Positions 3,738-25,191 of a stretch of 32,000 nt of DNA are shown here, one piece after another. Within the stretch, counting starts at the first letter, position 1. Each line of letters begins with the position of its first letter. The stretch comes from Acholeplasma laidlawii PG-8A. Lineage in GTDB: Bacteria > Bacillota_I > Bacilli_A > Acholeplasmatales > Acholeplasmataceae. The translations under genes and the position numbers were made by a program. The DNA is taken from positions 150,001-182,000 of the forward strand of contig NC_010163.1 in the NCBI RefSeq assembly GCF_000018785.1. Reading direction: 5' to 3'. The notes beneath the pieces were generated by a model. That model did not search any database. It saw only the letters and a list, made by a program, of their open reading frames with translations, and was not told the DNA's origin.

Positions 3738-3757
3738 TTTAATTTAAATGAATGTTT

Positions 3758-3784
3758 AAAAACCTGAGATTACTCGGGTTTTTT
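3758..3784 (+). terminator. Rho-independent terminator / attenuator after rplL
   Basis: AAAAA-CCTGAG-ATTA-CTCGGG-TTTTTT. 6-bp stem with one G-U, extended by A/T pairs, followed by a T6 run. Confidence 0.6.
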
Positions 3785-3808
3785 CACTTCTTTTTTATAG
3801 GTGAATTT

Positions 3809-4402
3809 ATGTCGCATTACTTTAGAAATGATCCCAATTTAATCAGTGAAGAAACTACGTATCAAGTCGAAATGTTTGATCAAAAATTTACATTTTTATC
3901 AGATAAAGGTGTTTTTAGTAAAGACCACTTAGATACTGGTTCATACGCACTTATAGCTAATTTAGATATACCAACTCATGCAAAAAGCCTACTGGATGTG
4001 GGCTCAGGCATAGGCGTCATAGGTATTATCTTAAAAAAAGTACATCCAAACTTGGATGTTACTCAAATAGATATTAATACACGTGCACTAGAACTTAACA
4101 TTAAAAATAATAAACTCAATCAAGTTGAAACAACCGTGTATGAGTCTAATTTATTCAGTCATGTAGACAAAACATTTGATTGTATCGTATCTAACCCGCC
4201 TATACGTACGGGTAAAGCTACCATATACAACTTATATAAAGATGCCTATAAACATTTAAATACATATGGACAATTGTGGATAGTCGTTAGAAAAGATCAA
4301 GGTGCTAAATCTACAATAGATTATTTATCAACAATTTATGAAGAAGTAGAACTTGTTAAACGACATAAGGGTTTTTATGTGATACGCGCACAAAAGAGAT
4401 GA
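3809..4402 (+). CDS. Class I SAM-dependent methyltransferase (RsmC/YbxB-like small rRNA methyltransferase domain)
   Basis: Motif I LLDVGSGIGVIG and the NPPIRTGK (NPPxH/R-type) motif are present. It occupies the same position as Bacillus ybxB, between rplL and rpoB. The start was moved from 3752 to the ATG at 3809 because the first 19 codons of the ORF-track call cover the rplL terminator. Confidence 0.85.
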   Translation: MSHYFRNDPNLISEETTYQVEMFDQKFTFLSDKGVFSKDHLDTGSYALIANLDIPTHAKSLLDVGSGIGVIGIILKKVHPNLDVTQIDINTRALELNIKNNKLNQVETTVYESNLFSHVDKTFDCIVSNPPIRTGKATIYNLYKDAYKHLNTYGQLWIVVRKDQGAKSTIDYLSTIYEEVELVKRHKGFYVIRAQKR

Positions 4403-4539: not shown

Positions 4540-7500
4540 ATGAGTTATAAAACCGTAAAATACGGAAAAAAAGCAGAACGACGTGATTATTCAAAAATGT
4601 TACATCAGGTTGAACTGCCGAATCTTATCGAGATACAGACTAAATCCTTTGAGGAGTTTGTAGAAACTGGTATTGATGAACTGTTAAAAGACATTTCACC
4701 AATTGAAGGACACAATGGTGACTTGAAACTCTACTTTGAGGAGAGTTCATTATCCGAACCAAAGTATTCTACTATTGAAACCAAGATTCGTGATCTAAAC
4801 TATTCTAGACAATTATCTGCTAGAGTTAAATTAGAAAACGCAATTACAGGTGAAGTAAGAGAATCCACCGTATTAATGACAGACCTTCCTATGATGACAC
4901 CATCAGGGACTTTTATCATTAATGGCGCTGAACGTGTAGTTGTATCCCAAATTGTACGTTCATCAGGTGTGTATTATACATCTGAATTGGATAAAAAAAT
5001 AAACCAAATTAAGTACTCTGCACAAGTGATCCCAACACGTGGTGCTTGGATAGAGTTTGAACAAGGTTCTAAAGAGATTTTATATGCTAAACTTGACCGT
5101 TCTAAGAAAGTTCCATTAACAACTTTCATTAGAGCATTAGGGTTTACTACTAAAAAAGATATTGAAGAAACTTTTGGTCGCTCAAGCTTAATTACCAACA
5201 CTTTTGAAAAAGATGAAACCAAATCACCAAATGAAGCGGTTATTGATCTTTACTCAAAATTACGTCAAGGTGAAAAAGTTCCGGCTGATGCAGCACGCGA
5301 ATTCATTAGAATGCGCTTATTTGATGCTAGACGTTATGATTTAGCTAAAGTAGGACGTTATAAATTCATTAAGAAATTAGACGTATTAGCAAGAGCAGAA
5401 GGTACATACTTAGCAAACGATATCATCTTAGATGGTGAAGTGTTAGTTGCTAAAGATACACACCTTACAAAAGAAGTTATTCAAATTTTAGCTCAAAATC
5501 GTGATGCATTTAGAAAACAATTAATTACTAAAGAAAATAACTTACAAAATGAAACTGCTGATGAAATATTAGCAACTACTTTACCAGAAGGTGGTAACAC
5601 ACTTTATGCTAAAGAAAATGTTGTGAACTTAAAAACTGGTGAAGTTTTAGTTAAGAAAAATGAAGCTATTACTGAAGAAGTTTTAACAAACTTAAGAAAA
5701 AATAGACATTCAATTGACGAAAAAGTCATCAAATACTTCTTAACAGAAGACGTTTACAAAAAAGAATCATTACGCCAAGGCGTTATTTCTGAAATTCTTG
5801 ATGTATATGTATATGATGATGCAGGCGATAAATCAAACGTTATCCGCATTATCGGTAGTGACCAAAGAGAAGATAGAATCTTCGTAGCAGTATCTGATAT
5901 TGTTGCAAGTATTTCATACTTCCTAAACCTATATGATGGTTTAGGTAATGTAGATGATATCGACCACTTAGGTAATAGACGTCTAAGATTAATTGGAGAG
6001 CTATTAAAAAACCAATTTAGAATTGGTTTAGCAAGAGCTGAAAAGAACATCAAAGATAAGATGTCAACAACAAACTTTAATGATGCAACACCTGCAAACG
6101 TTATTAACATGACGCCACTTGTAGGTGCTATTAAAACATTCTTTGGTTCGTCACAATTATCACAATTCATGGACCAAATTAACCCACTAGCAGAGTTAAC
6201 TCAAAAACGTAGAGTATCTGCCTTAGGTACCGGTGGTATTGCAAGAGATAGAGCTGGGGTTGAAGTACGTGACGTGCATAACTCTCACTACGGTAGACTC
6301 TGTCCAATTGAAACACCAGAAGGTCCTTCAATTGGTTTAATCTCCTCACTTGCTACATATGCTAAAGTCGATGAATATGGCTTTATTAAGACACCATTCT
6401 TAAAAGTTGTACAAAACGGAAATGAAACATCAGTGACTAAAGAAGTTATTTATTTAACAGCTGACGAAGAATCAGATCACGTGATTGCATCTGCTGCTAC
6501 ACCAATGGATGAACATGGTTTATTCATTGAAAGTAGAGTGATTGCAAGACGTAATGGTGAAACTGGTATTTATGATGCTAATGAAATCACTGCAATGGAC
6601 GTTAGTCCAAAACAGGTCGTATCTGTTGCGACATCTTCCATTCCATTCCTAGAACACGATGATGCTTCTCGTGCGCTTATGGGTGCGAACATGCAACGTC
6701 AAGCAGTACCTTTATTACAACCTACATCACCGATTGTTGGTACAGGGGTTGAATACCGTGCAGCTAAAGACTCTGGTGCTGTAGTCATTGCTAAAAACTC
6801 AGGTTATGTAACCTATGTCGATGGTAAGAAGATTATCATCACACCAGAACCAACTGATACAATTAAATCAGGATCTAAAACACTATATAAAGTGGGCGGA
6901 GAATTTGATTATGGTATCGCTAAGAAACTATATGAAACCAAATCAGTTCAAAATGATCAATATGATTTAGTTCAATTCTTTAGATCTAACCAAGATACTT
7001 TAATATTACAAAAACCAATCGTTATGCAAGGTGAGTACGTTGATGCAGGCGATGTCATTGCTGATGGCCCTTCAACTGAAAATGGTGAATTAGCATTAGG
7101 ACGTAACGTAACCGTGGCATTCATGACATGGGAAGGTTATAACTATGAAGATGCTGTCATCATGAGTGAAGACTTAGTGAAGCATGACGTGTATACATCC
7201 ATTCACATTGATGAATATGAAATTGAAACAAGAGATTTAAAACAAGCTAATGGTAAAGAAGAAATCACAAGAGAAATTCCTAACGTTGGTCAAGAAGCAA
7301 TTAAATTCTTAGATGAACGCGGTATTATCGTACCAGGCTCTGAAGTTAAAGAAGGCGACATCTTAGTTGGTAAAATCACACCAAAAGGTGTATTTGAACC
7401 AACTCCATCAGAAAAATTAATTCACGCTGTTATTGGTGATAAAGCTAAAGAGTATAGAGATTCATCCCTACGTGTACCTCATGGTGGCGGTGGTGTAGTT

Positions 7501-8355
7501 CAATCTGTTCAATACTTCAGTAAGAAAAATGGTGATCAATTACCAACTGGTGTAAACGAACAAATTAGAGTTTATATTGCTAAAAAGCGTAAAATCACTG
7601 AAGGTGATAAGATGGCTGGGCGTCACGGTAACAAGGGTGTTATTTCTAAAATTTTACCAAGAGAAGATATGCCATATTTAGCAGATGGAACATATGTTGA
7701 CATCATGTTAAACCCATTAGGGGTTCCATCACGTATGAACATTGGACAAATCTTAGAAATTCACTTAGGAATTTCGGCTCAAAAATTAGGTATTAAAGTT
7801 GCATCCCCAGTATTCGATGGTGTGACTAACGATGAGTTAGGCGCAATCATGGAAGAAGCAGGTATTGCACCAGATGGTAAGACTACATTATATGATGGTC
7901 GTACCGGAGAACCTTATAACAACCGTATTTCGGTTGGTGTAATGTACATGATCAAACTATCGCATATGGTGGATGATAAACTACATGCTAGAAACGTTGG
8001 ACCTTATACATTAGTTACACAACAACCAATGGGTGGTAAAGCTCAAAACGGTGGACAACGTTTCGGGGAGATGGAAGTTTGGGCACTTTATGCTTATGGT
8101 GCTGCACATACACTTCAAGAAATGTTAACGATTAAATCAGATGATATGATTGGACGTAATAAAGTGTATTATGCAATTACACACGGCCAAGAAATACCAA
8201 AAGCAAGTATTCCTGAATCCTTTAGAGTATTAACAAGAGAACTTCAAGCCCTAGGCTTATATGTAGAACTCATTGATGCAAACAAGGGAGAGAATGAGGC
8301 GATCAAGTCTTTAGTAGACAACTCGTCCAAAGGTTTTAACAAAGGGAGGTTTTAA
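4540..8355 (+). CDS. rpoB: DNA-directed RNA polymerase subunit beta
   Basis: 1271 aa. Hallmark segments: [47 protein letters not shown]. Confidence 0.99.
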
Positions 8356-8357
8356 TC

Positions 8358-11300
8358 ATGGCTAAGAACGAAGTATTATCCTTACCTGTAGATTCTTTAA
8401 AATTAAGTCAAACTGCATTAGATAGATTAAAACTATCTGGTATTAGTCGTTTAGAAGATTTCAATACATTTAACTTAAAAGAACTTCAAATGTTATTGAG
8501 TGATTCTTTTAATGAAGTCCTTCCAACATTAATTTATTACAAATTACCAAGAGATGTAAGAGATTTATCATTATCAGATGAAGTTGTTTCAGTACTTGAA
8601 ACAGCAGGTATTAAAGATTTAGAAGCATTAACAAAATATGACAAATCTACACTTTATCATGTGTTTAAAGACGATGAGTTCTTATTAAAAGAAATCAACG
8701 ATTTATTTGAACTATATCACGAAGAAAAATTATCTACTCTTAATGTAGCAACAGAAGTTTTTGAAGAAGTAGCACTTCCTCAAGAGGTATCTGTTGAAGA
8801 CAGAGTAAATAAGATCATTCAACCAATTCGTAAAACATATGGTTCTAAAGCATTTACGCACTTTAAAGTGAGACTTGCAAGTCCAGATGAAATTAGAAAC
8901 TGGTCTTATGGTGAAGTTATTAACCATGAAACTATTAACTATAGAACATCAAAACCTGAACCAGGTGGACTATTTGATGAAAGAATTTTTGGACCTACAA
9001 GAGATTACCAATGTGCTTGTGGTAAGAAACAAACTGTAAACAAAGGCCAAATTTGTCCAAAATGTGGTATTGAAATTACAGAGTCTAAAGTACGTCGTGA
9101 ACGTATGGGACATATTAACTTAGAAGCACCTGTTGTGCATACATGGTACTTAAAGAACTCTCCTTCAAGATTAGCTATCCTATTAGGCATTAAAGCTAAA
9201 CAATTAGAAGAAGTTGTTTACCATGCAAGTTATATTGTGACTGACCCAGGTCAAAACACACCACTAGCTAAAAAACAAATCTTATCCGAACAAGACTATT
9301 CTTTACTTGTTGAAGAATATGGTTCAAGATTTACAGCGCTTACTGGTGCTGAAGCGGTTAAAAAATTACTTCAAGATCTAGATTTAGATAAAGAAGTTAA
9401 AAATTTAAGAAAACGTCTTAAAACAAGTTCTAAACAAAAACGTGATCGTATTATTAAACGTTTAGATGTTGTTGAAGCATTTAACCAATCAGACAATAAA
9501 CCTGAGTGGATGGTTATGGATGTTATTCCAGTCATTCCACCAGATTTACGTCCAATGGTTCCACTAGATGGTGGTAGATTTGCTACAACTGACCTTAACG
9601 ACTTATATAGAAGAATCTTAAACAGAAACAACCGTTTAAAGAAACAAAAAGAACAAATGGCGCCTCGTTTAATTACTAAGAACGAAAAGCGTATGTTACA
9701 AGAAGCAGTAGATGCATTATTCGATAACGCGAAACGCGGTAAGAAGGCTGCTGTTGAACGTAACCGCCACTTAAAATCATTATCTGATTTACTACGTGGT
9801 AAACAAGGTCGTTTCCGTCAAAACTTATTAGGAAAACGTGTGGACTACTCTGGACGTTCAGTTATTATTGTTGGTCCAGACTTAGAGATGTACCAATGTG
9901 GTATTCCTCGTGAAATGGCAATTACATTATTTAAACCATTTATCTTACGTGAATTACAACTAACACATGGTGCAGAAAAGAAAAATGCAAACGCTAAATA
10001 CGAAAGACGCGATGACGACACATGGCGTGCACTTGAAAAAGTTGTACGTGAGCACCCAGTATTACTAAACCGTGCGCCAACGCTACATAGACTTGGTATT
10101 CAAGCATTCGAAGTGAAATTAATTGATGGTAAAGCGATTCGTCTACACCCACTTGTTACACCTGCGTTTAACGCGGACTTTGACGGGGACCAAATGGCGG
10201 TTCACTTACCACTATCACCAGAAGCTCAAGCAGAAGCAAGATTATTAATGCTTGCATCTAACAACATCTTAAACCCTAGAGATGGTAAACCAGTTGTTAC
10301 ACCATCTCAAGATATGGTTTTAGGTAACTATTACCTAACTATTGAAGAATCTAAAGATCGTAATTTTGGTGATGATCTTGAAAGAACTAAGAAACACCAA
10401 GAAAAGCATCGCCATGAAGGTAAGTTCTTCTCATCTATTGATGAAGTTAAGATTGCTTATGAGAATAAAGATATTTCTTTACATACAAGAATTATCATTA
10501 AACCAGAATCAGTTAAAGACACATTTACAGTAGAACAAAAGAACATGTATTTAGTGACAACATTAGGTAAAATCATCTTTAACGAAATCTTACCTGAAAC
10601 ATTCCCTTATGTAAATGAACCTACAATGTCTAACTTAAGTGAAAAGACACCAGACATTTACTTTATTAAAAAGGGTGTGAATCCAAAGGATGCACTAAAG
10701 CATATTCCTACACCTGAGCCATTTAAGAAGAGATTCTTATCTATGGTTATTGCTCAAGTATTTAAATTATTCCACATTTCTGAAACATCAAGAATGTTAG
10801 ATAAATTAAAAGACTTAGGATTTAAATATTCAACAGTTGCTGGTATTACAATTTCTTATGCAGACATCAACGTATACTCCAAGAAAAAAGAAATGGTTGA
10901 AGCAACCGAAGAAGAAATTAATGAAATTGAAGAATGGTTCGAAGATGGATTACTAACAGATTCAGAACGTCGTAAACTTGTTATTGATAAATGGACAAAT
11001 GTTAAAAACGAAATTCAATCTGGTATTATGAAAGAATTCGATAAAGATAACAACATCTTTATGATGAGTGACTCTGGTGCCCGCGGTAACGTATCTAACT
11101 TTACACAGTTAGTCGGTATGAGAGGACTTATGAGTAACCCTAAAGGGGAAACGATTGAAGTTCCAGTTCAATCATCATTTAGAGAAGGTCTAACCGTATC
11201 TGAATTCTTTATCTCCACCCACGGTGCGAGAAAAGGTTCTACCGATACCGCGCTTAAGACCGCAGAATCTGGTTACTTAACACGTCGTTTAGTCGACGTA

Positions 11301-12485
11301 TCACAAGACGTTATTATTGTTGAGGATGATTGTGGTTCAAGCCATGGTGTTTATGTAGAAGCAATTAAAGATGAGTCAGGTAAAGAAATCGTTCCATTAT
11401 ACGATAGAATTTATGGCCGCTTTGCTGCACATGACATTATCAGTCCAAAAACTGGTGAAGTATTTGTGAAACGTAATGAACTGATTACTGAAGAAATCGG
11501 TTTGGCAATCGTTAAATCAGGTATGCAAAAAGTTGAAATTAGAAGTATTATGACATGTACATCAAGTCATGGTATTTGTGCGAAAGACTACGGTATTAAC
11601 TTAGCTACAAACCAATTTGTTGAAGTTGGTGAAGCTATTGGGGTTGTTGCTGCTCAATCTATTGGTGAGCCAGGTACACAGTTAACCATGCGTACATTCC
11701 ATACAGGTGGGGTTGCTGCTGGTGCCGATATTACTCAAGGTTTACCACGTATTCAAGAGTTATTTGAAGCACGTAATCCAAAAGGTAAAGCAACGATTTC
11801 AGAAGTTGAAGGTAAAGTTAAAGATATCTCACGTCGTGGTGGTTCAATTAGCATTACAATTACTGATACCCAAGGCACTGAATACAAATACACGCTTGAT
11901 CCAAACATTGAAGCTTTAGTTAAAAAAGGTCAAGATGTTGTTGCAGGTCAAAAACTATCTAGTGGATCTATTAATCCAAAAGAATTACTACGTGTAACAG
12001 ATGTTAAAACAGCATCTAACTACATTTTAGAAGAAGTTCAAAAAGTTTACCGCGCTCAAGGGGTTGAAATTTCTGACAAGCACGTTGAAGTTATTATTCG
12101 TCAAATGTTACGTCGTATCATGGTAATTATTGAAGGTGATACCAACATCTTACCAGGTACAGAGGTATCTATTGATGAGTTTAAACGTGAAAATAAAGAA
12201 GTACTTAAAAACCGTGGTCGCTTAGCTGTTGGTCGCCCAATACTATTAGGTATTACTAGAGCATCTCTAAGAAGTGATTCCTTCTTATCTGCTGCATCCT
12301 TCCAAGAAACTACAAGAATCTTAACAGATGCTGCAATTAGAAGTAAGAAAGATGAATTACACGGACTAAAAGAAAACGTCATTATCGGTGGATTAATCCC
12401 AGCTGGTACAGGTATACTGCAAGAAAAATTCTTCCATTATGATCAACCAGAAGATAAAAAACCAATATATGATGATTTTGAATAA
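8358..12485 (+). CDS. rpoC: DNA-directed RNA polymerase subunit beta-prime, with a ~160-aa N-terminal extension
   Basis: 1375 aa. GGGAGG RBS 8 nt upstream. Catalytic NADFDGDQM motif, zinc-binding CxCGK...CPKCG, and trigger loop/bridge helix regions are present. Homology to the canonical N-terminus (..[15 protein letters not shown]) begins only near residue 166. Confidence 0.99.
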
Positions 12486-12742: not shown

Positions 12743-13018
12743 ATGATGTTCAAACAAGAACCCGGACGATTTTATATAAATGATGAATCGGGTAAAATGA
12801 TTGCAGAAATTACTTATAAATATATTGGTGAATATATTGCAGCAACACATACATTTGTTGATCCTGTATTAAGGGGACAAGGTATTGCACAAAAGTTAGT
12901 CGATGAAGTTGTAAGACTTTCAAGAAGTGAAGGGAAGAAAATAGATCCTGTTTGTCCATATGTAAAAAATCTATTCGAAAAGGATATGCAGTATAGTGAT
13001 GTGTATTTAAAACGTTAG
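12743..13018 (+). CDS. Small GNAT-fold N-acetyltransferase (Acetyltransf_CG / YjdJ-NATD1-like)
   Basis: 91 aa. GGAGGT RBS. THTFVDPVLRGQGIAQKLV...CPYV is the typical single-domain GNAT acetyl-CoA-binding pattern. Confidence 0.8.
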   Translation: MMFKQEPGRFYINDESGKMIAEITYKYIGEYIAATHTFVDPVLRGQGIAQKLVDEVVRLSRSEGKKIDPVCPYVKNLFEKDMQYSDVYLKR

Positions 13019-13028
13019 ATTATAGTTA

Positions 13029-13060
13029 TTGACAGTTTTAAATTTAAGGTATGTTAAAAT
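13029..13060 (+). promoter_or_regulatory. Candidate promoter for the GGDEF operon
   Basis: TTGACA (13029-13034) and an extended -10 TGtTAAAAT (13052-13060). The spacer is over-long at 20 nt, so the call is weak. Confidence 0.35.
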
Positions 13061-13103
13061 ATTTGTTGTGTGATAAATAATTACATAGATTAGGGAGAAA
13101 TCT

Positions 13104-14231
13104 ATGCAAACTGTAAATATAGCTTTATTTGTTTATTCATTTATCTTATTGATTTCTATATATTTATCAAGTGGACAAGTTAGGTATAAGTTAATGAGTG
13201 ATAGGCTTTTTAGGTCACTCATTAGAGTAACCCTGCTTCTTTTAATGGTTGATATGATAGCTAGGTTTGAGGGATTAGACTATTGGTTCTATCCTGTTTT
13301 TAGTCGTGTAGGTAATTTTGTATCCTATGGTATAAGTCACTTTATATCATCATTATGGTTCTTATATATTCATAATAGAATTTATACAGATACTGAACGA
13401 ACAAAAAACTTATACAAATACTTTTTCCTAATTAATTTGGTAAACTGGATTTTACTAATTATCACTCAGTTTACTGGATGGTATTATTATTTGGATAGTT
13501 CAAATATATATCACAGAGGACCATTATTTTTCTGGACACAATTAGTCAATGCTGTAATTTTACTTAGTTCACTTGTATTACTTGTATTAAAACGTAAACG
13601 TATTGAACAAAACACGATGTTTGCATATATTTTGTTTAGTTTAATTCCGGCGATTGGCTTAACTTTACAAATTATATTACCTGGAATTGCCTATATTCCA
13701 AATTCAGTGGCTGCTGCACTCATTATTCTATATTTATTCGTTCAAAACAATAAAGTAAGATATGATCACTTAACCGGCATATTTAATAGAAGGCACATGG
13801 ATTATTATTTAGAAGATAAACTAATAAGTGCAAAGCGCGGTAAACCATTTTCAGCTATTTTATTTGATTTAGATGATTTTAAAGATATCAATGATACATT
13901 AGGTCACTCTGTTGGTGATATTGCGATTAAAAAGACTGCGAAAATACTTGCCAGTGCAAGTAGTAAACATGAATTTTTAGCACGTTATGGTGGAGATGAG
14001 TTTTTGATCATAACAAGTAAGTATGAAAAACAAGATATTGATGAAATAGTAAAAAGGGTCTATGATGGTATTAATCAGTTTAATAAAATCAATGATAAAT
14101 TTAAACTAAGTATTAGTCATGGTTATTATGTATATCATAAGGATTTAAATTTAAGTCGAGATCAATTCATTGATGTTGTAGATAGAAATATGTATGATAA
14201 TAAAATAAAAAAGAAAAATTCTAGAGTATGA
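13104..14231 (+). CDS. Membrane-anchored diguanylate cyclase (multi-TM sensor domain + GGDEF domain)
   Basis: 375 aa. The N-terminal ~210 aa carry about 6-7 hydrophobic helices. The C-terminal part reads DHLTGIFNRR...LFDLDDFKDINDTLGHSVGD...RYGGDEFLII, an intact GGDEF active site. No RxxD I-site lies 5 residues upstream (SKHE instead). Confidence 0.9.
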   Translation: MQTVNIALFVYSFILLISIYLSSGQVRYKLMSDRLFRSLIRVTLLLLMVDMIARFEGLDYWFYPVFSRVGNFVSYGISHFISSLWFLYIHNRIYTDTERTKNLYKYFFLINLVNWILLIITQFTGWYYYLDSSNIYHRGPLFFWTQLVNAVILLSSLVLLVLKRKRIEQNTMFAYILFSLIPAIGLTLQIILPGIAYIPNSVAAALIILYLFVQNNKVRYDHLTGIFNRRHMDYYLEDKLISAKRGKPFSAILFDLDDFKDINDTLGHSVGDIAIKKTAKILASASSKHEFLARYGGDEFLIITSKYEKQDIDEIVKRVYDGINQFNKINDKFKLSISHGYYVYHKDLNLSRDQFIDVVDRNMYDNKIKKKNSRV

Positions 14232-14656
14232 TACAAAACACGATATTAAATCAATTAAATGAAAAAGGATTTGTAGTATCTAAAATAAGAGGGGTAAGTA
14301 TGTGGCCCTTCTTTAATCAAAAAAATACGCAAGTCTATATTAAGAGTGCTCTTAACTACAATAAAAATGACTGTATTCTTTTTTTAAGAGATGATGGTAG
14401 TTTAATTATGCACCGTATTCTTTACTTAAAAAAAGACTTCTTCTTAGTGTGTGGGGATAACCAGTCACAATTAGAAAAAGTGTATTGTAGTCAAATAAAA
14501 GGTAAAATGACTGAGTATTATATTAATGGACATACCAGACGTCCAATAGGTATAAAATATCACGTGTATGTAAGATGGATAAGAATTACTAGGCCGATAA
14601 GAGTTATAAGAGATCTATTAAAGCATATCATAAAAAAAATAATCAACAAAAAATAA
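14228..14656 (+). CDS. Soluble S24/S26-family (SipW-type signal-peptidase / LexA fold) serine peptidase-like protein
   Basis: 142 aa. The start overlaps the GGDEF stop (ATGA at 14228-14231). Motifs: RGVSMWP (nucleophile Ser box), LIMHRILY (His box as in S26B/SipW-type enzymes) and CGDNQ (GDN box). There is no N-terminal TM anchor. The C-terminal tail is very basic. Confidence 0.6.
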   Translation: MIQNTILNQLNEKGFVVSKIRGVSMWPFFNQKNTQVYIKSALNYNKNDCILFLRDDGSLIMHRILYLKKDFFLVCGDNQSQLEKVYCSQIKGKMTEYYINGHTRRPIGIKYHVYVRWIRITRPIRVIRDLLKHIIKKIINKK

Positions 14657-14675
14657 CTTACAAGGAGATATGTAA

Positions 14676-14999
14676 ATGTTTTATTATAAGCAAGCAAAAG
14701 TGAATATGATTACATATCTTGTTATTATTGTTTTTTTAAGTTTATTGGCTTTAATACCTTCTGAAGGTGATAATGAACTTATTATTTATCTATTAGGTGT
14801 TTATAGTTTTATTTGTGTATTTAATATGTTTTTGTATGTCCAAATCAAAAAACATATTAAAGGAAATCGTGTGATCCCAAGGTATATGAAAGTTGTAGTT
14901 CTTACATCACTTATCATAGTAGTTTTCTCACTTATATTTAATTTAGAAGCTGCAATTGATTTTTATAATGAAATCAAAGACAGCAAAAAAATACATTAA
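14676..14999 (+). CDS. Small 3-TM membrane protein, unknown function
   Basis: 107 aa. AAGGAG RBS 9 nt upstream. Three hydrophobic helices. No recognisable motif. Confidence 0.6.
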   Translation: MFYYKQAKVNMITYLVIIVFLSLLALIPSEGDNELIIYLLGVYSFICVFNMFLYVQIKKHIKGNRVIPRYMKVVVLTSLIIVVFSLIFNLEAAIDFYNEIKDSKKIH

Positions 15000-15014
15000 T
15001 GTTTAAAAAAACGT

Positions 15015-15044
15015 AGCCGGATAGTTTAAACTTATCCGGCTTTT
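15015..15044 (+). terminator. Rho-independent terminator
   Basis: AGCCGGATA / TATCCGGCT 9-bp stem with a 9-nt loop, followed by TTTT. An A-run lies upstream, so it may act bidirectionally. Confidence 0.75.
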
Positions 15045-15085
15045 ACTATGTAAATTTTATGAAAACGTATTCATTATAGTTTCAT

Positions 15086-15113
15086 TTGAATTAATTTTAA
15101 AATCATATAAAAT
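15086..15113 (+). promoter_or_regulatory. Candidate adhE promoter
   Basis: TTGAAT (15086-15091) - 16 nt - TAAAAT (15108-15113). Confidence 0.45.
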
Positions 15114-15155
15114 AGGGCTATAAAACCAATTCATATAACACAAGGAGAATTTAAT

Positions 15156-17744
15156 ATGGAAAAAGACACACTTATCTTAAACGAGGTAGATCTTTTAGTC
15201 ACGTCTGCTTTAGAAGCACTTGACGAATACATGGAGTTTACCCAAGAGAAGATTGATGAGATTGTAGCCAAAGTTTCTGTTGAAGCAATTGATGCACATG
15301 GCCGTTTAGCCAAGCTTGCTGTAGAGGAAACTAAACGAGGGGTATTTGAAGATAAAGCAACCAAGAATTTATTTTCAGTAGAATATGTCATCAATCATAT
15401 GAGACACCTAAAAACTGTAGGGATTATCTCGGAAAATACAGTAACGGGTATTACAGAGGTAGCTGATCCTGTTGGGGTAATTTGCGCTATTACACCAGTA
15501 ACGAATCCAACATCGACGACAATATTTAAGTCATTGATTGCACTTAAAACTAGAAATCCAATCGTCTTTGCGTTTCATCCAAATGCGCAAAATTCATCAA
15601 AGGAAGCGGCTAGAATTATTAAAGAAGCAGCGATTAAATCAGGTGCTCCAAAAAATTGTATTTCATGGATTGAACATCCAAGTTTAGATAATACAAATAA
15701 ACTTATGAACCACCCGGGGATTGCAACTATTTTAGCAACTGGTGGTAATGCAATGGTTAAGGCAGCTTACTCATGTGGTAAACCAGCTCTTGGTGTCGGT
15801 GCAGGTAACGTACCAGCATACATTGAAAAAACTGCAAACATTAAAACCGCAATCAATGATATTGTTATGTCTAAGTCATTTGATAATGGTATGGTATGTG
15901 CATCTGAACAAGCAGCTATTATTGATAAAGAAATCTATAAAGAAGCTTTGGCGGAATTTAAAAAGTTACATACTTTTTTATGTAACAAAGAACAAAAACA
16001 AATGCTGGAAACATTTATGTTCCCAGATGGTGTCAAGCTTAATCCTTATGTTGTAGGTAAGAGTGCACATCACATTGCAGAACTTGCAGGTTTCGAAGTT
16101 CCTTTAAATACCAACATTTTACTAGTAGAATGTAAAAGTGTTGGTAAAGAAGAACCACTTACAAGAGAAAAACTCTCGCCAGTATTAGCAATTCTTAAAT
16201 CAAATGATGAAGTACATGGTGTAGCACTTGCAAAAAGTATGGTAGAACTTGATGGTTTAGGACACTCTGCAGTGATTCACACACAAAATGATGAACTTAA
16301 AAAAACCTTTGGTTTAGCACTTAAAGCGATACGTATTATAGTGAATTCACCAGCGACTTTTGGTGGCATAGGTAATGTATATAACAGGTTTATACCATCA
16401 CTTACCTTAGGGTGTGGTTCTTATGGTAAAAACTCTGTTTCTGATAATGTCAGTGCCATCCACTTACTTAATATCAAACGTATCGGTGAAAGGAAAAATA
16501 ATATGCAATGGTTTAAGGTTCCATCTAAAATTTACTTTGAAAAAGATTCTATTGAATACTTAAGACAAATGAGAGATGTTAACAAGGTTGTCATCATCAC
16601 AGATAGAGTGATGGTTGACTTAGGTTATGTTAAAAAAGTAACTGATCAACTAAGTTTAAGACGTAATCATGTTGTATATCAACTATTTACCGATGTTGAA
16701 GCTGATCCATCCATTGAAACAGTTCATAAAGGTTATGAACTGATGAAATCCTTCCAACCAGATACGATTATAGCTATTGGTGGTGGTTCACCAATGGATG
16801 CTGCAAAAGCTATGTGGTTATTCTATGAAAACCCTGAAGTAGATTTTAACGACTTAAAACAAAAATTCATGGATATTAGAAAACGTGCATTTAGATATCC
16901 TGATTTAGGTAGAAAATCTAAATTAGTATGTATTCCAACAACCTCAGGTACTGGTAGTGAAGTGACTCCGTTTGCAGTTATCACTGATAATAAAGAGTCT
17001 AAAAAATATCCATTAGCAGATTATTCATTAACACCAACTGTAGCTATTATTGACCCTGCACTTACACTTACTCAACCAAAATCTGTTACAGCAGATACTG
17101 GAATGGACGTGTTAACACATGCAGTAGAAGCTTACGTTTCAGTACTTGCTAATGACTATACAGACTCACTTGCAATTCAAGCAGTTAAAATGGTATTTAA
17201 ATACTTAAAACGTGCATTTGATAATGGATTGGACTTTGAAGCAAGAGAAAAGATGCATAATGCATCTACCATGGCAGGTATGGCATTTGGTAATGCATTC
17301 TTGGGTATATCTCACTCTATGGCTCATAAAGTAGGTGGAAGATATCATATACCTCATGGTAGAATTAATGCAATCTTATTACCACATGTCGTTTTATATA
17401 ATGGTACAGTTCCAGCTAAGTTATCTACTTGGCCAAAATACACATATTATGTAGCAGATGAAAAATACATGGAACTAGCTAGAGCAATCGGATTAGATCC
17501 TAAATCTAAAGAAGAAGGCGTTAAGATGTTTGCTAAGGCATGTCATGATTTAGCAGTATCATTAGGTATTAATATGAGTTTTGCTAGTCAAAAAGTAGAA
17601 GAAAAAGATTTCTTAGAACACAGTGAAACTTTAGCTTATCTAGCTTATGAGGATCAATGTTCAACAGCTAACCCTAGACTACCTTTAGTAGCGGATATGA
17701 AGGTGATCCTAGAAAATGCATATTACGGCAAACTAGATATATAG
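15156..17744 (+). CDS. adhE: Bifunctional acetaldehyde-CoA / alcohol dehydrogenase
   Basis: 862 aa. The N-terminal aldehyde dehydrogenase half contains the catalytic region FDNGMVCASEQ. The C-terminal iron-type ADH half contains GGGSPMDAAK and HSMAHKVG...H. AAGGAG RBS. Confidence 0.97.
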   Translation: MEKDTLILNEVDLLVTSALEALDEYMEFTQEKIDEIVAKVSVEAIDAHGRLAKLAVEETKRGVFEDKATKNLFSVEYVINHMRHLKTVGIISENTVTGITEVADPVGVICAITPVTNPTSTTIFKSLIALKTRNPIVFAFHPNAQNSSKEAARIIKEAAIKSGAPKNCISWIEHPSLDNTNKLMNHPGIATILATGGNAMVKAAYSCGKPALGVGAGNVPAYIEKTANIKTAINDIVMSKSFDNGMVCASEQAAIIDKEIYKEALAEFKKLHTFLCNKEQKQMLETFMFPDGVKLNPYVVGKSAHHIAELAGFEVPLNTNILLVECKSVGKEEPLTREKLSPVLAILKSNDEVHGVALAKSMVELDGLGHSAVIHTQNDELKKTFGLALKAIRIIVNSPATFGGIGNVYNRFIPSLTLGCGSYGKNSVSDNVSAIHLLNIKRIGERKNNMQWFKVPSKIYFEKDSIEYLRQMRDVNKVVIITDRVMVDLGYVKKVTDQLSLRRNHVVYQLFTDVEADPSIETVHKGYELMKSFQPDTIIAIGGGSPMDAAKAMWLFYENPEVDFNDLKQKFMDIRKRAFRYPDLGRKSKLVCIPTTSGTGSEVTPFAVITDNKESKKYPLADYSLTPTVAIIDPALTLTQPKSVTADTGMDVLTHAVEAYVSVLANDYTDSLAIQAVKMVFKYLKRAFDNGLDFEAREKMHNASTMAGMAFGNAFLGISHSMAHKVGGRYHIPHGRINAILLPHVVLYNGTVPAKLSTWPKYTYYVADEKYMELARAIGLDPKSKEEGVKMFAKACHDLAVSLGINMSFASQKVEEKDFLEHSETLAYLAYEDQCSTANPRLPLVADMKVILENAYYGKLDI

Positions 17745-17766
17745 TATATATTCAAATAATTAAATC

Positions 17767-17836
17767 AAAGACTTTCAAATAACTTATAGGTTTTAGTAAA
17801 TCTTGTAAGACAAAAGTTATTTGAAAGTCTTTTTTT
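17767..17836 (+). terminator. Long-stem terminator after adhE
   Basis: 19-bp perfect inverted repeat AAAGACTTTCAAATAACTT (17767-17785) / AAGTTATTTGAAAGTCTTT (17814-17832), followed by a T-run. Confidence 0.8.
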
Positions 17837-17995
17837 ACTATTTAAACACAAAAAACGAAAATTATTTTCACCTAATGAAAATATATGCTAATCTATTGTA
17901 TAAAATGATATTAAATTGCTAAATGATATACGAAAGTAAATCGAGTGTAATATAATCATAGGTAAATATGGAAGCGTTTTTATAAGGGGGAAAAT

Positions 17996-18127
17996 ATGAT
18001 AAAAACGGTAGAAACAAAAAAGAGGGCATATGAGTGTCCTGTTATTGAAGTGGTCAAGTTTGAAGAAAATGTTCGAACTGGATCCGAGGGTTCAGCAAAC
18101 GTGAGTGACTGGTGGTTTGAGGTATAG
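17996..18127 (+). CDS. Unannotated 43-aa ORF (possible RiPP/lasso-like precursor or coupled upstream ORF)
   Basis: ATG at 17996 preceded by AAGGGGG (17984-17990). Translation: MIKTVETKKRAYECPVIEVVKFEENVRTGSEGSANVSDWWFEV. The TAG stop at 18125-18127 directly abuts the next gene's GTG/ATG. It is below the ORF-track size cutoff. Confidence 0.45.
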   Translation: MIKTVETKKRAYECPVIEVVKFEENVRTGSEGSANVSDWWFEV

Positions 18128-18130
18128 GTG

Positions 18131-20389
18131 ATGAAGAAACTTACAATTATTGTAACTTTCCTAGTAACTCTATTACTAGTAACACCTTTTGTATTTGCAA
18201 GTAGTGGTGCACCTACAATGATAGAGGGTGCATCTATTAGAACAAGTGGAGAACAAGGTTTGAGATTTTATGCAAATCTTGAAAATGAAGCTGTAACTAG
18301 TCAAGGATTTTATCTTGTATATGGTGAAACTTCAGTAGTGAATCTTCAAACTGCTATTTCTAATGCAGTTGAAGACAATGTCATGTTAAATGGCAAAAAG
18401 GTTTTCAAAGTAGAAGTTGAAAACAGAGAACCAAATGGTGATTTCAGTGTTGTTTTAACTGGTATACCTGAAGTTGGTTATTTAGATAAAATAACTGCAA
18501 TTGCTTATGGTGTTGTAGATAATGCAGAAATATTTGTAAGTGCTGGTACTACAAGATCCATTGGAGAAGTAGCTTATAATATGATTAAAGCAAATGATTA
18601 CAACCAAGTGGCACTGGATATACTTGAATCTATTGATATCAATCATAGAGCACTTGTAAGTACTCATTGGGAAACGTACGAAGAATCATCTGCAATCTTT
18701 GAGACAGATCCATTAATATTAAAGACTCAGTTCATTAATGATTGGAATGCCAAATTCGGTACAACTTTAACGGATTTAATAGGAACTGCTTTTCATACAA
18801 GTGCAATTGTTGGTAAAACAGACCAAGCAGCTCAAGGATCAATGACTAATTTGACTGGAATGAGAATCTATGCATTCTTCAAAGATGAATTATATAGTTT
18901 AAAATGGGGTTGGCTTCTAGACTATATTATAAAGTATGGAAGTGGAATTATTCACCCAGCAAGACAGGCTGTTGCGTTAAAGGGCGATGGAACAAATAAC
19001 AACCAAATACTCTATGATGCAAGCCATTTCAATTATTCTCTAGTTAATTTTTTTAATATGAGTAACCAAACTGGAGGTTATGAGCCTATTAATTTTACAC
19101 TTCCAGGCTCTAAAGCTAGATATCAGGATGTTGTAAATTTTAACAATACAATACCTAAAATGTTAAGTATTTATAATTTATCAAAAATTGGTGATAGTGT
19201 TGCACTACCGCAAGATTTATCAAAGGATGGATATACGTTTAATCAAAGTTTCACAGAAGGAACTAATGTACATACAATAAGTTATATTTTGACTGGTCAA
19301 GGAAAAGTGCTTGAACCTAATTTTACAATTGTTAACTACAATATTAGCTATTTAGATGGTGCTGAAGAAGTGTTACCAAATGATTTATATAATATTAATC
19401 AATCTTTAACTTTACCTACCTATGAGAAACCGGACCATATCTTTGAGGGCTGGTTTGATAATCCTTCATTTACAGGTTCACCTGTAACCAGTATTTCCAT
19501 GGGTACTACAGGAAATAAGGTGTTTTATGCAAAAACATCGCTACTAGATGATCCGGTTATTACAAGCTTAATTTCACAATTACCAACACATATTATGAAT
19601 GATTATGTCCTTCCTAATGCAGAAGGTGTTACATGGCAACTAAAAGCAGGACAGGACACTACTTTATACAATGTTGAAACAGGAAAATTACTCAGATTCC
19701 CTGGTGAATCAACACTACTAACTGTAGTCCTTAACAAAGGAAGTATTAGTCAAGATGTAGTATTAAGATTTGGTATAGCAGATCCGACAAAAACACAATA
19801 TTATTATAACGCTGATGCCAACTCAGTAGCGCAAACTGGTGGAACATTTACTACGCAACAAAACAAATCAGGATTCGGTGGGTATACAATAATAGTAGGT
19901 ACAAAACAATACTTTATTGGGTATAGATCCCATATCTCACTTTCTGGTACAACAGCAAATGAAATAATGACAATCTCTCAGCTAAGACCATATGGGTTAG
20001 GAGGAGCAAATAATTATAATTTAGGATTGCTCACAGGAGGTATACCTGCAACTAATTCAAGAGGTTATGGGGTATTGTATGAAAATACAGGCAATGTACC
20101 GGTTCAATTTGATTTGAGAGAAACATATGGAAGAGCAGATTCTGGTTATGCGGGTTATGGTAAATTTATATTAAAGCCTGAAGGAAATGGACAATATAAA
20201 GTTAGTGCTCTATTACCAAACCATACTGGAGGACTGATGGTAACCTTAAACCAGGGCGAACTATTATGGGCACCCCACACTTGGGAAGTAGCTGGAACTT
20301 ATTTATATCAACCAGGCGCAACAAAAGGGGTACTATTAGTAAACTCTATAATCAAAATTGAGACATTTAAAATGGATTTCACAGACTAG
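18131..20389 (+). CDS. Exported multidomain protein: shared EGASIR module + Listeria-Bacteroides-type repeat + Ig-like domain + unknown C-terminal domain
   Basis: The ORF track starts at GTG 18128. The ATG at 18131 has GAGGT 7 nt upstream. Signal peptide MKKLTIIVTFLVTLLLVTPFVFA|SS. Residues ~31-400 are paralogous to the C-termini of the two GHL10 genes. DHIFEGWFDNPSFTGSPVTSISMGTTGNKVFYAKT fits the Listeria-Bacteroides (Flg_new) repeat. LPNAEGVTWQLKAG...LTVVLNKGSISQDVVLRF fits a small bacterial Ig-like domain. The last ~200 aa are Gly/Tyr-rich and unassigned. Confidence 0.85.
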   Translation: MKKLTIIVTFLVTLLLVTPFVFASSGAPTMIEGASIRTSGEQGLRFYANLENEAVTSQGFYLVYGETSVVNLQTAISNAVEDNVMLNGKKVFKVEVENREPNGDFSVVLTGIPEVGYLDKITAIAYGVVDNAEIFVSAGTTRSIGEVAYNMIKANDYNQVALDILESIDINHRALVSTHWETYEESSAIFETDPLILKTQFINDWNAKFGTTLTDLIGTAFHTSAIVGKTDQAAQGSMTNLTGMRIYAFFKDELYSLKWGWLLDYIIKYGSGIIHPARQAVALKGDGTNNNQILYDASHFNYSLVNFFNMSNQTGGYEPINFTLPGSKARYQDVVNFNNTIPKMLSIYNLSKIGDSVALPQDLSKDGYTFNQSFTEGTNVHTISYILTGQGKVLEPNFTIVNYNISYLDGAEEVLPNDLYNINQSLTLPTYEKPDHIFEGWFDNPSFTGSPVTSISMGTTGNKVFYAKTSLLDDPVITSLISQLPTHIMNDYVLPNAEGVTWQLKAGQDTTLYNVETGKLLRFPGESTLLTVVLNKGSISQDVVLRFGIADPTKTQYYYNADANSVAQTGGTFTTQQNKSGFGGYTIIVGTKQYFIGYRSHISLSGTTANEIMTISQLRPYGLGGANNYNLGLLTGGIPATNSRGYGVLYENTGNVPVQFDLRETYGRADSGYAGYGKFILKPEGNGQYKVSALLPNHTGGLMVTLNQGELLWAPHTWEVAGTYLYQPGATKGVLLVNSIIKIETFKMDFTD
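18218..19327 (+). repeat. Copy 1 of the ~365-aa paralogous protein module (N-terminal position)
   Basis: MIEGASIRTSGEQGLRFYAN...FYLVYGET...KKVFKVEV...VVLTGIP...FETDP..FINDWN...LKWGWLLDYI...ARQAVALKGDGT...VVNFNN aligns block by block with copies 2 and 3. Similarity is at protein level; the DNA has diverged. Confidence 0.8.
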
Positions 20390-20397
20390 AAAAAATT

Positions 20398-20426
20398 AAT
20401 AAGGCGCTATTTAATAGCGCCTTATT
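20398..20426 (+). terminator. Hairpin (weak terminator) after the 752-aa gene
   Basis: AATAAGGCGC / GCGCCTTATT stem, extendable to 14 bp. The downstream T-run is poor (CTTATC), so read-through into the next gene is plausible. Confidence 0.5.
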
Positions 20427-20443
20427 CTTATCAGAAAGGTACT

Positions 20444-21151
20444 ATGAACACATATAAAATAGCAGATCTAATCATCAAAATGAATCCTAAACACGATCCA
20501 CTATTAAGTCAAGCTAAAGCTTACTTAATAAATACGAGAGAATTAGTCGATTTTGTAATCCCTGATTTAACAAAGGATGTTTTAGCATATCATAATGATA
20601 ATCAAGATTTAACAATCGGAGACTGTGAATACATTATGTATGCTTCTTATTTTTATACTAAGCTGATAGAATATAATGGTATATACTTACATGCGTCAGC
20701 TGTAGTTAAAGATGGTTTTTGTTATATGTTCTCTGCACCAAGTGGTACAGGAAAATCAACACATACTAATCTATGGCTTAAGAATATAAAAGATTCACTT
20801 ATTTTAAATGATGATAAACCCGCAATTAGAATATTTGACGATACTATTTATGCTTATGGTACTCCATTTTCTGGCAAACATGATTTAAGTATCAACCAAA
20901 AATACCCTTTAAAGGGTATATCATTTATATATAGAGATTCTAAAAATACCATCACTAAAATCAATCCAAATGAGTCATTATCTTTAATGATGGCACAAAC
21001 AGTTAGATCTAAACAAGAAAAATATTTAGTTAAAACACTATCTATGCTAGAAACTATCTTAACTAAAACACCAATATATAAAATGGGTTGTACAATATCC
21101 AAAGAAGCCGCATTAATGTCGTATAACACTATGAAAGGGCAGACACTATGA
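20444..21151 (+). CDS. HPr kinase C-terminal-domain-like P-loop protein (HprK-related kinase, substrate unknown)
   Basis: 235 aa with no signal peptide. LHASAVVKDGFCYMFSAPSGTGKSTHTNLW...ILNDDKPAIRI...YGTPFSGK follows the H-[GA]-x-x-V...G-x-S-G-x-GKS...DD pattern of the HprK C-terminal domain. There is no HprK N-terminal domain. Its stop overlaps the next gene's start (ATGA at 21148-21151). Confidence 0.6.
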   Translation: MNTYKIADLIIKMNPKHDPLLSQAKAYLINTRELVDFVIPDLTKDVLAYHNDNQDLTIGDCEYIMYASYFYTKLIEYNGIYLHASAVVKDGFCYMFSAPSGTGKSTHTNLWLKNIKDSLILNDDKPAIRIFDDTIYAYGTPFSGKHDLSINQKYPLKGISFIYRDSKNTITKINPNESLSLMMAQTVRSKQEKYLVKTLSMLETILTKTPIYKMGCTISKEAALMSYNTMKGQTL

Positions 21152-23868: not shown

Positions 23869-23876
23869 AATCACCG

Positions 23877-23915
23877 AAGGTATAGATGTAAAAAATAATA
23901 CATTTATACCTTTTT
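23877..23915 (+). terminator. Rho-independent terminator
   Basis: AAGGTATAGATG / CATTTATACCTT stem of 12 bp with one G-U and a 12-nt loop, followed by T5. Confidence 0.65.
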
Positions 23916-24000
23916 CTAGTGATATGAAATTAGAAACTTTGAATTGTAAGTGATTTATTATAAAATAGTGTGTAAAAGCAAAACAACAAAGGAGTACACG

Positions 24001-25191
24001 ATGAAAAAAATATATACCCTATTCATATTGATATCAATACTACTTTTAAGTGGTTGTATCATATCAAATGATGATGAACCAAAAAGCTATGAAGTAGGTC
24101 TTGATGTACTATATGAACTAAATGATGAAGTCAGAGGTTTAGATATCATTGTTGATTTAACCATGGAATTTGATGTGAGTGAAGTGACTGACTTTTATGT
24201 CACACTATCATACATGGTAAATGCAACAACAGAAGATTTAGATTATAAGTTGCAATTACCAAGTGCTACAAAGGTAAACTTTTTTGAAGTCACTGGTAAT
24301 CAAGCAGTTCAAACCTTAGAAGAAGTTATATTTGATTATAAAGGTGATTATATAAGTGCATATGTAACTGTACAGTTTAAAAAAGGTATAACGAATCATG
24401 TATATGAACTAAAAAGTATAAAGTCAACGAACCTTTATGAACTTGCATTAGTATCAGAGGGTACATTTGCAACTGAAATTTTAGAATCATATGAACCAAG
24501 TGCTGAGTTTCCTGAACTAGAAATTAGTTTAACTGCTTCATTAAACAATGAATTTAGAGGTTTTGATTTAGCATCAGTTCTAACCTCTAATGAGACCTTA
24601 GAGAGTTTAGAAGTGACTTACGGGTTTATTTACATACTTAATGATGATGAAGCAATCTATTTAAACACACCCGAGGTTACAAATATTACCAAGGAAGAAG
24701 TTATAACACTTGATTTATTAACGAACTTTGATACAAATATTAAGAATACTACGTTAGATTATGAGCTAGATAGAGTTTATGCGAGATCTTTTGTTACTGT
24801 AACTAAATCAGATGAATCATATACATACTATTCAGAAATCATTAATTTTACGCTATATGAATTAGCACTAGAATCTACCGGTGCATTTGCTGAAGAAATC
24901 ATTACTGAAGTAGAATATCAAGAACCAGATCAAACAGTATTAACAATTGTAAGTATTAACGCAAATACTACAAACTATACAATTACTCTAGTAAGTGATC
25001 ATGCAACTGCAACCATCTCAACAGATTACTTAAAAGTCACAGTTGTAGTTACATTAGATACTGGGTATAGTTTTTCTAATAACCTTATCTTTAAGTTTAA
25101 TAATAAAGTAGTTAGTGTATCAAATTATACAATAGTTAATAACAAATTAACTTATATATTTAATGATCCGAACTGGTCAGGTATCTACTAA
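24001..25191 (+). CDS. Lipoprotein with internal tandem duplication, unknown function
   Basis: The start was moved from 23950 to the ATG at 24001 (AAAGGAG RBS at 23988-23994). MKKIYTLFILISILLLSGC has a canonical lipobox L-S-G-C. Two segments of about 150 aa repeat: ...YVTVQFKKGITNHVYELKSIKSTNLYELALVSEGTFATEIL versus ...FVTVTKSDESYTYYSEIINFTLYELALESTGAFAEEII. The TAA stop overlaps the next ATG (TAATG at 25189-25193). Confidence 0.85.
   Translation: MKKIYTLFILISILLLSGCIISNDDEPKSYEVGLDVLYELNDEVRGLDIIVDLTMEFDVSEVTDFYVTLSYMVNATTEDLDYKLQLPSATKVNFFEVTGNQAVQTLEEVIFDYKGDYISAYVTVQFKKGITNHVYELKSIKSTNLYELALVSEGTFATEILESYEPSAEFPELEISLTASLNNEFRGFDLASVLTSNETLESLEVTYGFIYILNDDEAIYLNTPEVTNITKEEVITLDLLTNFDTNIKNTTLDYELDRVYARSFVTVTKSDESYTYYSEIINFTLYELALESTGAFAEEIITEVEYQEPDQTVLTIVSINANTTNYTITLVSDHATATISTDYLKVTVVVTLDTGYSFSNNLIFKFNNKVVSVSNYTIVNNKLTYIFNDPNWSGIY

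Follow-up and report, generated by a model that had tools for sequence, protein, structure and literature searches.

Background

Bacterial RNA polymerase (RNAP) reaches upstream DNA and activators with what is classically seen as its mobile 'hand', the C-terminal domain of the alpha subunit (alpha-CTD). In E. coli numbering, the '265 determinant' that engages the minor groove comprises R265, N268, C269, G296, K298 and S299, while residue E261 contacts sigma region 4. The domain (PF03118) consists of about 60 residues forming four helices around helix-hairpin-helix (HhH) motifs, is connected flexibly, through a linker, to the RNAP core, and is present once on each of the two alpha subunits. Lineage-specific insertions in the beta and beta-prime subunits are reportedly treated in Iyer et al. 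2004 and in Lane and Darst 2010. The present work concerns a 32,000-nucleotide stretch of Acholeplasma laidlawii PG-8A (NCBI RefSeq assembly GCF_000018785.1, contig NC_010163.1, positions 150,001 to 182,000 of the forward strand; "the window" in the following), in which the beta-prime gene rpoC opens with two tandem alpha-CTD-like modules and a linker ahead of the canonical beta-prime sequence. This appendage is very probably a genuine, conserved and alpha-CTD-homologous part of the rpoC reading frame.

The two modules share with the alpha-CTD its fold, sequence homology, size and flexible attachment to the core, and they are likely to operate, as it does, at the upstream face of the enzyme. 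They differ from it in being placed at the N-terminus of beta-prime instead of the C-terminus of alpha, in occurring as a tandem pair once per enzyme, in lacking the conserved 265 determinant, and in carrying Lys or Ser at the E261 equivalent; in addition, the second hairpin is gone in module 1 and module 2 is strongly acidic. Clade-restricted accretion around an unchanged catalytic core is also seen in the sequence insertions of E. coli and in the Helicobacter beta/beta-prime fusion, but the known beta and beta-prime insertions are mostly beta-rich (SBHM, BBM2) and lie within the chain, whereas the addition described here is terminal and borrowed from another RNAP subunit. In E. coli NusA, the AR1-AR2 repeats form a tandem pair of small acidic HhH domains that are flexibly attached and make protein contacts, and AR2 binds the alpha-CTD. 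The host protein is a different one, and neither the PDB profile search nor Foldseek placed NusA among the best hits of the modules, with no specific homology detected; AR1-AR2 may be taken as a functional analogy to the docking role proposed below.

Known already, then, are the alpha-CTD-like (HhH)2 kind of domain and lineage-specific accretion on beta and beta-prime; what differs here is the donor and the site, i.e., an alpha-type domain that was duplicated, was placed on the N-terminus of beta-prime and has lost its DNA determinant. No description of such a beta-prime fusion was found in full-text literature searches, and an earlier note on this DNA (made from the sequence alone, and the source of several claims considered below) had suggested that the architecture might be undescribed; comparative RNAP surveys may hold a prior mention. 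The locus amounts to an experiment of nature on the uses of a tethered alpha-CTD fold other than DNA binding, and bears on the organisation of transcription in Acholeplasma and probably in phytoplasmas, which are wall-less and have small genomes. A. laidlawii can be cultured, and tools for its genetics have lately become available (PMC10805103), so that experimental work on the fusion is feasible.

Results and discussion

Reading frame and start of rpoC

The gene order in this part of the window, according to the list of open reading frames (ORFs) and their translations, is rplK, rplA, rplJ, rplL, a methyltransferase gene, rpoB and rpoC, and rpoC occupies its typical place directly 3' of rpoB in an rplKAJL-rpoBC cluster. 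The features given here with coordinates in this cluster are on the + strand. The rpoB gene (4540..8355) encodes a beta subunit of 1271 amino acids (aa), and its stop codon (8353-8355) is separated by a 2-nt gap from the ATG of rpoC (8358..12485, 1375 aa; both genes from the ORF list and translation). A GGGAGG Shine-Dalgarno sequence, read from the sequence at 8344..8349, lies 8 nt 5' of this ATG, i.e., inside the last codons of rpoB. The earlier note had described an ORF continuous from the ATG at 8358 with this ribosome-binding site and without internal Met near the canonical N-terminus, and this description stands: before aa 300, Met occurs only at positions 1, 45 and 250. Alternative in-frame start codons within codons 2-185 are limited to codons 45, 47, 102 and 171, and none of the four has a Shine-Dalgarno-like motif upstream.

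The encoded protein matches the TIGR02386 rpoC model with 1696.7 bits (cut-off 963.5) over aa 169-1356 and contains the full set of Pfam Rpb1 domains 1-5 (Rpb1_1 to Rpb1_5). Homology begins at aa 164 for Rpb1_1 and at aa 169 for TIGR02386, on either side of residue 166, near which canonical beta-prime had been placed. The extension-free beta-prime of the nearest lineages begins MSQKFSHFKIRLASP, which aligns to a 15-residue stretch here; the extension proper is therefore about 161 residues long, and canonical beta-prime (aa 162-1375) corresponds to 8841..12485, stop included. A. laidlawii LS483439.1 is 99.98% identical to the window over 12.9 kb.

Anatomy of the extension

When 24 N-termini from genomes and metagenomes were aligned, two conserved blocks were seen, at aa 1-62 and 63-122. 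The first block is module 1 (8358..8543), an alpha-CTD-like HhH module without the second hairpin and with a net charge of about -1, assigned by Pfam, hhalign, PDB profile search and AlphaFold2 (AF2). The second is module 2 (8544..8723), an alpha-CTD-like four-helix module with a net charge of -8 and an isoelectric point (pI) of 4.5, assigned by AF2, Foldseek and hhalign. Both modules keep the first hairpin (LxxxGI), and in the hhalign alignment of module 1 to the alpha-CTD there is a 3-residue deletion at the position of the second hairpin. Invariant residues of the modules include LEDFNTF, Y61 and P64. The linker (aa 123-161, 8724..8840) is acidic and predicted to be disordered (AF2 confidence, orthologue alignment); its length varies between 33 and 56 residues among the orthologues, it is His-rich in some of them, and its C-terminal end is a conserved R-K-x-Y-G-S-x-x-[FY]-x-H running into the K-[IV]-R-L-A-S-P of beta-prime. 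Net charges in the orthologues are about -1 to -2 for module 1, -4 to -11 (pI 4.1-4.9) for module 2 and -1 to -6 for the linker, and aa 1-165 of the window protein carry -10 in total.

In the AF2 model of residues 1-166, helical domains extend from about residue 10 to 125 with a predicted local distance difference test score (pLDDT) of 73-82 (77-82 in module 1), and aa 127-166 fall below 50, consistent with disorder. Module 2 modelled alone, from 20 sequences, reached a pLDDT of 92.7.

Homology of the modules to each other and to the alpha-CTD

Two similar segments had been pointed out at aa 11-47 and 67-103, and the peptides are indeed in these places. Compared as a single pair, the modules resemble each other weakly (ungapped score 39, z = 3.0, a score reached by 66 of 5000 shuffles), and BLASTP of module 1 against module 2 gave an E value of 0.6, which is not significant. 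Profiles built from 19 orthologues each, on the other hand, were aligned by hhalign with a probability of 94.1% (E = 1.3e-7, 54 columns), a result that shows the modules to be products of an internal duplication.

The proposal that both modules are alpha-CTD-like was borne out by profile and predicted-fold comparisons. The window RpoC itself matches PF03118 in two stretches with 21.5 bits against a threshold of 23.8 (E 2e-4), the match on module 1 covering aa 3-44; the window sequence itself is just sub-threshold, and the assignment to PF03118 rests on orthologues and profile comparisons. Among the 19 orthologues, module 1 matched the family with E <= 0.01 in 11 (best 1.4e-7) and module 2 with E <= 0.1 in 10 (best 2.8e-4), and several beta-prime fragments already bear a precomputed PF03118 annotation. 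In hhalign comparisons with three canonical alpha-CTDs (those of T. thermophilus and B. subtilis as given in the search output, and that of E. coli), module 1 scored 93.8% (E 1.8e-7, 58 columns) and module 2 scored 79% (E 1.6e-5, 36 columns). The best match of module 1 in a PDB profile search was 1doq, the T. thermophilus alpha-CTD (E 0.0086), with the B. subtilis alpha-CTD at 0.047, and that of module 2 was the RpoA chain 8gzg_A (E 0.0043). When the module 2 model was searched against the PDB with Foldseek, alpha-CTDs came out on top, with a query-normalised template modelling score (TMq) of 0.73-0.80 and a root-mean-square deviation (rmsd) of 2.2-2.5 Å over 55-59 of 60 residues; the two-module model aligned to the alpha-CTD over about 62 residues (target-normalised score, TMt, 0.74-0.76; rmsd 1.6-2.0 Å). 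The predicted structures thus have the four-helix (HhH)2 fold and superpose on solved alpha-CTDs; in position they differ, lying at the N-terminus of RpoC and not the C-terminus of RpoA, with the linker joining them to beta-prime. Taken as a whole, these comparisons give good support to both modules being homologues of the alpha-CTD family.

The second-best structural and Pfam match of module 2 was the N-terminal HhH domain of RAD51/RAD51D (PF21794). This match was weaker than the alpha-CTD in every comparison and comes from an unrelated biological context, and it reflects the shared (HhH)2 superfold.

An exhaustive HMMER search with the extension profile against 1.84 billion representative proteins yielded 48 clusters. 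The matches not of Acholeplasma type were proteins with 2-12 genuine PF03118 repeats, and these tandem-repeat proteins (P0024, P0030, P0039, P0042-P0048, P0050, P0053, P0054) are the nearest relatives outside Acholeplasmataceae (E 1e-14 to 5e-4). They resemble the extension in that alpha-CTD-like domains are tandem and mobile outside RpoA, in some cases together with sigma-70 region 4, HARE-HTH or pentapeptide repeats; they differ in that none is an RNAP core subunit and that their repeats exceed the Pfam threshold by a wide margin, the modules of beta-prime being divergent by comparison. Two further matches, P0029 and P0052, were discarded as false positives, being leucine-rich-repeat proteins. 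One of the tandem-repeat proteins, P0024 (806 aa), contains 12 tandem Pfam alpha-CTD stretches and a hydrophobic N-terminus resembling a signal peptide or membrane anchor.

Distribution and conservation of the fusion

RpoC N-termini were surveyed, as the earlier note had suggested, through genome loci and metagenomic fragments; word-indexed protein searches returned fragments and no full-length RpoC. A genome scan with one genome per species, using the pattern GI[DS][RKT]L[ED]DFN derived from a 6-sequence alignment, found 17 loci, every one in Acholeplasmataceae: A. laidlawii, A. granularum, A. oculi, A. equifetale, Paracholeplasma vituli, Mariniplasma and metagenome-assembled genomes. Because the pattern is narrow, 17 is a lower bound on the distribution. 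In 15 of the 17 the module pair stands at the start of an ORF that runs on into beta-prime, with the R[LI]AS[PS] motif of beta-prime 157-184 residues past the start of the match and the initiating Met only 1-10 codons from an upstream stop. One of the other two, in A. granularum (L002), has the same start in an ORF that is cut by the contig end, and the second (L005) is a paralogue and not rpoC. The start is therefore conserved in 15 genomes, in support of the view that this is a true in-frame fusion. The reading frame is unbroken in the orthologues of the scan, and the extension is 98% identical to that of strain 8195 and down to 40% identical in Paracholeplasma, with the architecture intact.

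In the metagenomic survey, beta-prime fragments of Acholeplasmataceae type covered 98-100% of a 400-residue query, whereas those of Izemoplasmatales, Anaeroplasmataceae and Bacilli covered the last 60% only and had the canonical short N-terminus; the extension was absent from the fragments of these three groups. Ratios of non-synonymous to synonymous substitution (dN/dS) were 0.12-0.25 in the modules (about 0.15-0.25 in module 1), about 0.7-1 in the linker and 0.05-0.13 in the beta-prime core, values that are qualitative, as synonymous sites are near saturation; they indicate that the modules are under purifying selection.

A rpoB-rpoC contig with 26% GC (L018:3798-4260, Logan SRR32933015) repeats the adjacency of the two genes and encodes both modules, in a frame that is broken between the modules and again further into rpoC. 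The breaks are probably an assembly error, with pseudogenisation as the alternative. The closest named beta-prime to this contig, an N-terminally truncated fragment, is from a phytoplasma and 69% identical, and on the strength of L018 the fusion probably extends to phytoplasmas. A separate observation concerns P0014 (466 aa), a beta-prime N-terminal fragment with the extension whose core motifs are divergent, IFCLASSKEIRRLSYGEIKNDETINLG replacing the usual 27-residue stretch; it may be a divergent lineage or a decaying second copy.

These data bear on the question of whether the extension might be missing from mature beta-prime, owing to an internal translation start or to cleavage in the linker that would free a two-domain protein. 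The disordered, variable linker is a plausible protease site, and stand-alone proteins made of the same modules exist (see below). An internal start is opposed by the lack of any Met between 45 and 250, by GTG/TTG codons that have no Shine-Dalgarno sequence, by the strong Shine-Dalgarno sequence at codon 1, and by the conserved start with its close upstream stop; the frame is continuous in every orthologue, and cleavage is compatible with the sequence. Absence of the extension from the mature subunit is accordingly judged highly improbable.

Loss of the DNA-reading residues

The residues equivalent to the 265 determinant were read off alignments to solved alpha-CTDs and counted over the 24 sequences. 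Arg is absent from the R265 position of both modules (0/24): the residue there is E/T/Q/A/K/H/D in module 1, and in module 2 it is Glu in 23/24 and Asp in 1/24. In place of G296, module 1 has Leu and module 2 has Asp; in place of K298 they have D/A/E and F/L/I, respectively; and the S299 equivalent is S/A in module 1 and L in module 2. At the position of E261, Lys is found in module 1 and S/A/N in module 2. Neither module therefore carries the 265 determinant of a canonical alpha-CTD, and with this loss and the acidity of module 2, canonical UP-element recognition by the modules is unlikely. The suggestion in the earlier note that the modules touch UP-element DNA as the alpha-CTD does is not upheld, the determinant being replaced in 24/24 sequences and the net charge of module 2 lying at -4 to -11; the other half of that suggestion, contact with an activator or another protein, is plausible.

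It could still be argued that the modules are extra readers of UP-element or other upstream DNA, acting like alpha-CTDs and raising promoter affinity in an A/T-rich genome. Both modules do share fold and homology with the alpha-CTD, they have kept the LxxxGI of the first helix-hairpin, the tether lies near the upstream DNA face, and the window is A/T-rich (GC = 33.7%). These features are set against an R265 equivalent that is Arg in 0/24 and Glu in 23/24 of the module 2 sequences, G296, K298 and S299 equivalents that read L/D/S in module 1 and D/F/L in module 2, the deleted second hairpin of module 1, and net charges of -10 over aa 1-165 and -4 to -11 in module 2; such a function is considered unlikely.

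A related possibility is that the alpha-CTD was relocated, i.e., that the CTD of RpoA was lost or degraded in Acholeplasmataceae and that the beta-prime copies replace it. This idea is prompted only by the homology and the similar tethered geometry, with nothing direct in its favour. A replacement would be expected to keep the DNA determinant, which is gone, and the nearest relatives in the whole library are the multi-repeat alpha-CTD-like proteins and not RpoA, so that relocation appears very unlikely. The rpoA gene lies outside the window, and none was found within 10 kb downstream of fusA either, since in A. laidlawii tuf is not followed by the S10 operon.

A tethered docking platform as the proposed role

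We lean slightly towards the reading that the extension is a duplicated, alpha-CTD-homologous appendage acting as a tethered site for protein docking; the docking role, taken by itself, is put forward tentatively. RNAP structures place the beta-prime N-terminus by the zipper and zinc-binding domain, near upstream DNA, sigma region 4 and the beta flap. In the enzyme discussed here the N-terminus would thus lie beside the zinc-binding and zipper elements, and the nearby face would include upstream promoter DNA, sigma region 4, the beta flap and the RNA exit channel. A disordered linker of about 40 residues would let the modules range over the zone usually patrolled by alpha-CTDs, where they would dock proteins instead of reading UP-element DNA. 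A docking platform is favoured because the DNA-reading residues of the alpha-CTD are gone and the modules are acidic. Candidate contacts would be a regulator, an RNAP-associated factor that is recruited or retained, sigma region 4, or the genuine alpha-CTDs. The module is also portable, occurring in other Acholeplasmataceae proteins, some of them with sigma-70 region 4.

Several points count against this docking proposal. The two-module AF2 model was built from 5 sequences only and reaches a pLDDT of 67 over its whole length and about 78 within the modules; the place assigned to the beta-prime N-terminus comes from the RNAPs of other bacteria and not from the A. laidlawii enzyme; the docking partner is putative; and the presence of the extension in mature RNAP is read from gene structure. 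As to proteomic evidence on the N-terminus, the supplements of PMC3139596 contain lists of proteins and not of peptides. Moreover, the modules may bind the backbone of DNA or RNA in a non-canonical manner, because both keep the first hairpin L-x-x-G-I and module 1 combines only mild acidity with K/R at several positions, and such residual nucleic-acid binding is one of the main rivals to docking, beside an acidic decoy and the replacement of a lost RpoA CTD.

The charge of the extension also allows it to be viewed as an acidic decoy or autoinhibitory module which, like sigma region 1.1 or the acidic Firmicute delta tail, would occupy or shield nucleic-acid-binding surfaces of RNAP and lower non-specific binding. 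Module 2 and the linker are net negative in all orthologues, the tether is flexible, and precedents are generally known in sigma 1.1, the delta C-terminal domain and NusA AR2 autoinhibition. However, folded and conserved domains with the invariant LEDFNTF, Y61 and P64 exceed the needs of a charge decoy, the linker sequence is nearly unconstrained (dN/dS about 0.7-1), and in known structures the beta-prime N-terminus is away from the main channel. We rate this explanation as decidedly unlikely and retain the docking platform as the preferred one.

Stand-alone paralogues of the module pair

Modules of the same kind occur in proteins other than beta-prime: at the N-terminus of P0012, which has no further Pfam match; together with sigma-70 region 4 in P0015; and at aa 175-300 of P0019. 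In A. granularum (L005:2107-3368, NZ_JAFR01000002.1) a paralogue consists of a module pair, a Lys/Asn-rich linker and a second module pair, and an A. laidlawii-like metagenomic contig (L022:5120-6627, ENA ERZ1645045 ctg140) encodes three module pairs, followed by an ORF with sigma-70 region 4 (7681-8130). The upstream neighbours of the two paralogues are the same, Polysacc_synt_2 and NTP_transf_5. The paralogues are 84% identical (aa) to each other, and each has one pair that is closer to the rpoC of its own genome: 98% aa and 95% nt identity to its own rpoC extension in L022, and 88% aa and 93% nt in A. granularum. Such a pattern points to exchange between the 5' end of rpoC and the paralogue, either by gene conversion or by copying that was recent and repeated. 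In A. granularum the rpoC and paralogue copies both lie at the ends of contigs, where an assembly broken by the repeat would put them. Only the rpoC copy is present in strain 8195, and the paralogue is therefore an accessory gene.

A phage origin of the paralogues was considered and dropped: no relative of the module was found among viral contigs, the neighbours of the paralogues had no match in PHROGs, and the locus is syntenic and chromosomal. A more far-reaching scheme would make the beta-prime module pair one half of a lineage-specific regulatory system, in which free paralogues compete or pair with the modules tethered to RNAP over a common partner and so reprogram transcription, gene conversion keeping decoy and target matched; this is speculative, and we think it unlikely.

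The large proteins P0015, P0044 and P0053 pair alpha-CTD-like modules with sigma-70 region 4, and P0053 additionally contains pentapeptide repeats and matches HARE-HTH weakly, below the threshold. The three represent an architecture class that joins two promoter-proximal RNAP domains outside RNAP.

Other features of the window and its flank

The methyltransferase gene between rplL and rpoB (3752-4402) encodes a small-domain enzyme matching Pfam MTS, with a weaker PrmA-like match. In Bacillus, the rpoC and rpsL-rpsG-fusA operons are adjacent. Here they are separated by about 15 kb of non-ribosomal genes (12743-27891), which include a GNAT acetyltransferase, a GGDEF diguanylate cyclase, adhE, a Listeria-Bacteroides-repeat surface protein and two GHL10 proteins; in a mollicute, a GGDEF gene straight after rpoC is out of the ordinary. 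Of the two GHL10 glycosyl-hydrolase-like genes, the second (25191-27891) is frameshifted into ORFs of 579 and 276 aa, while its counterpart in A. laidlawii LS483439.1 is intact with 900 aa (two indels in 2.9 kb), which makes the split gene either a pseudogene of this strain or the product of an error in sequencing.

In A. laidlawii LS483439.1, 3' of the region corresponding to the window (L019:17796-20252), an 818-codon ORF encodes GdpP followed by ribosomal protein L9. The GdpP part is a cyclic di-AMP phosphodiesterase (PAS, GGDEF-like, DHH, DHHA1) without a stop before L9, and L9 keeps its own Met (…GGDNTPMKVILLEDVKGKG…); the ORF is thus either a genuine GdpP-L9 fusion or a case of L9 being initiated within the gdpP frame.

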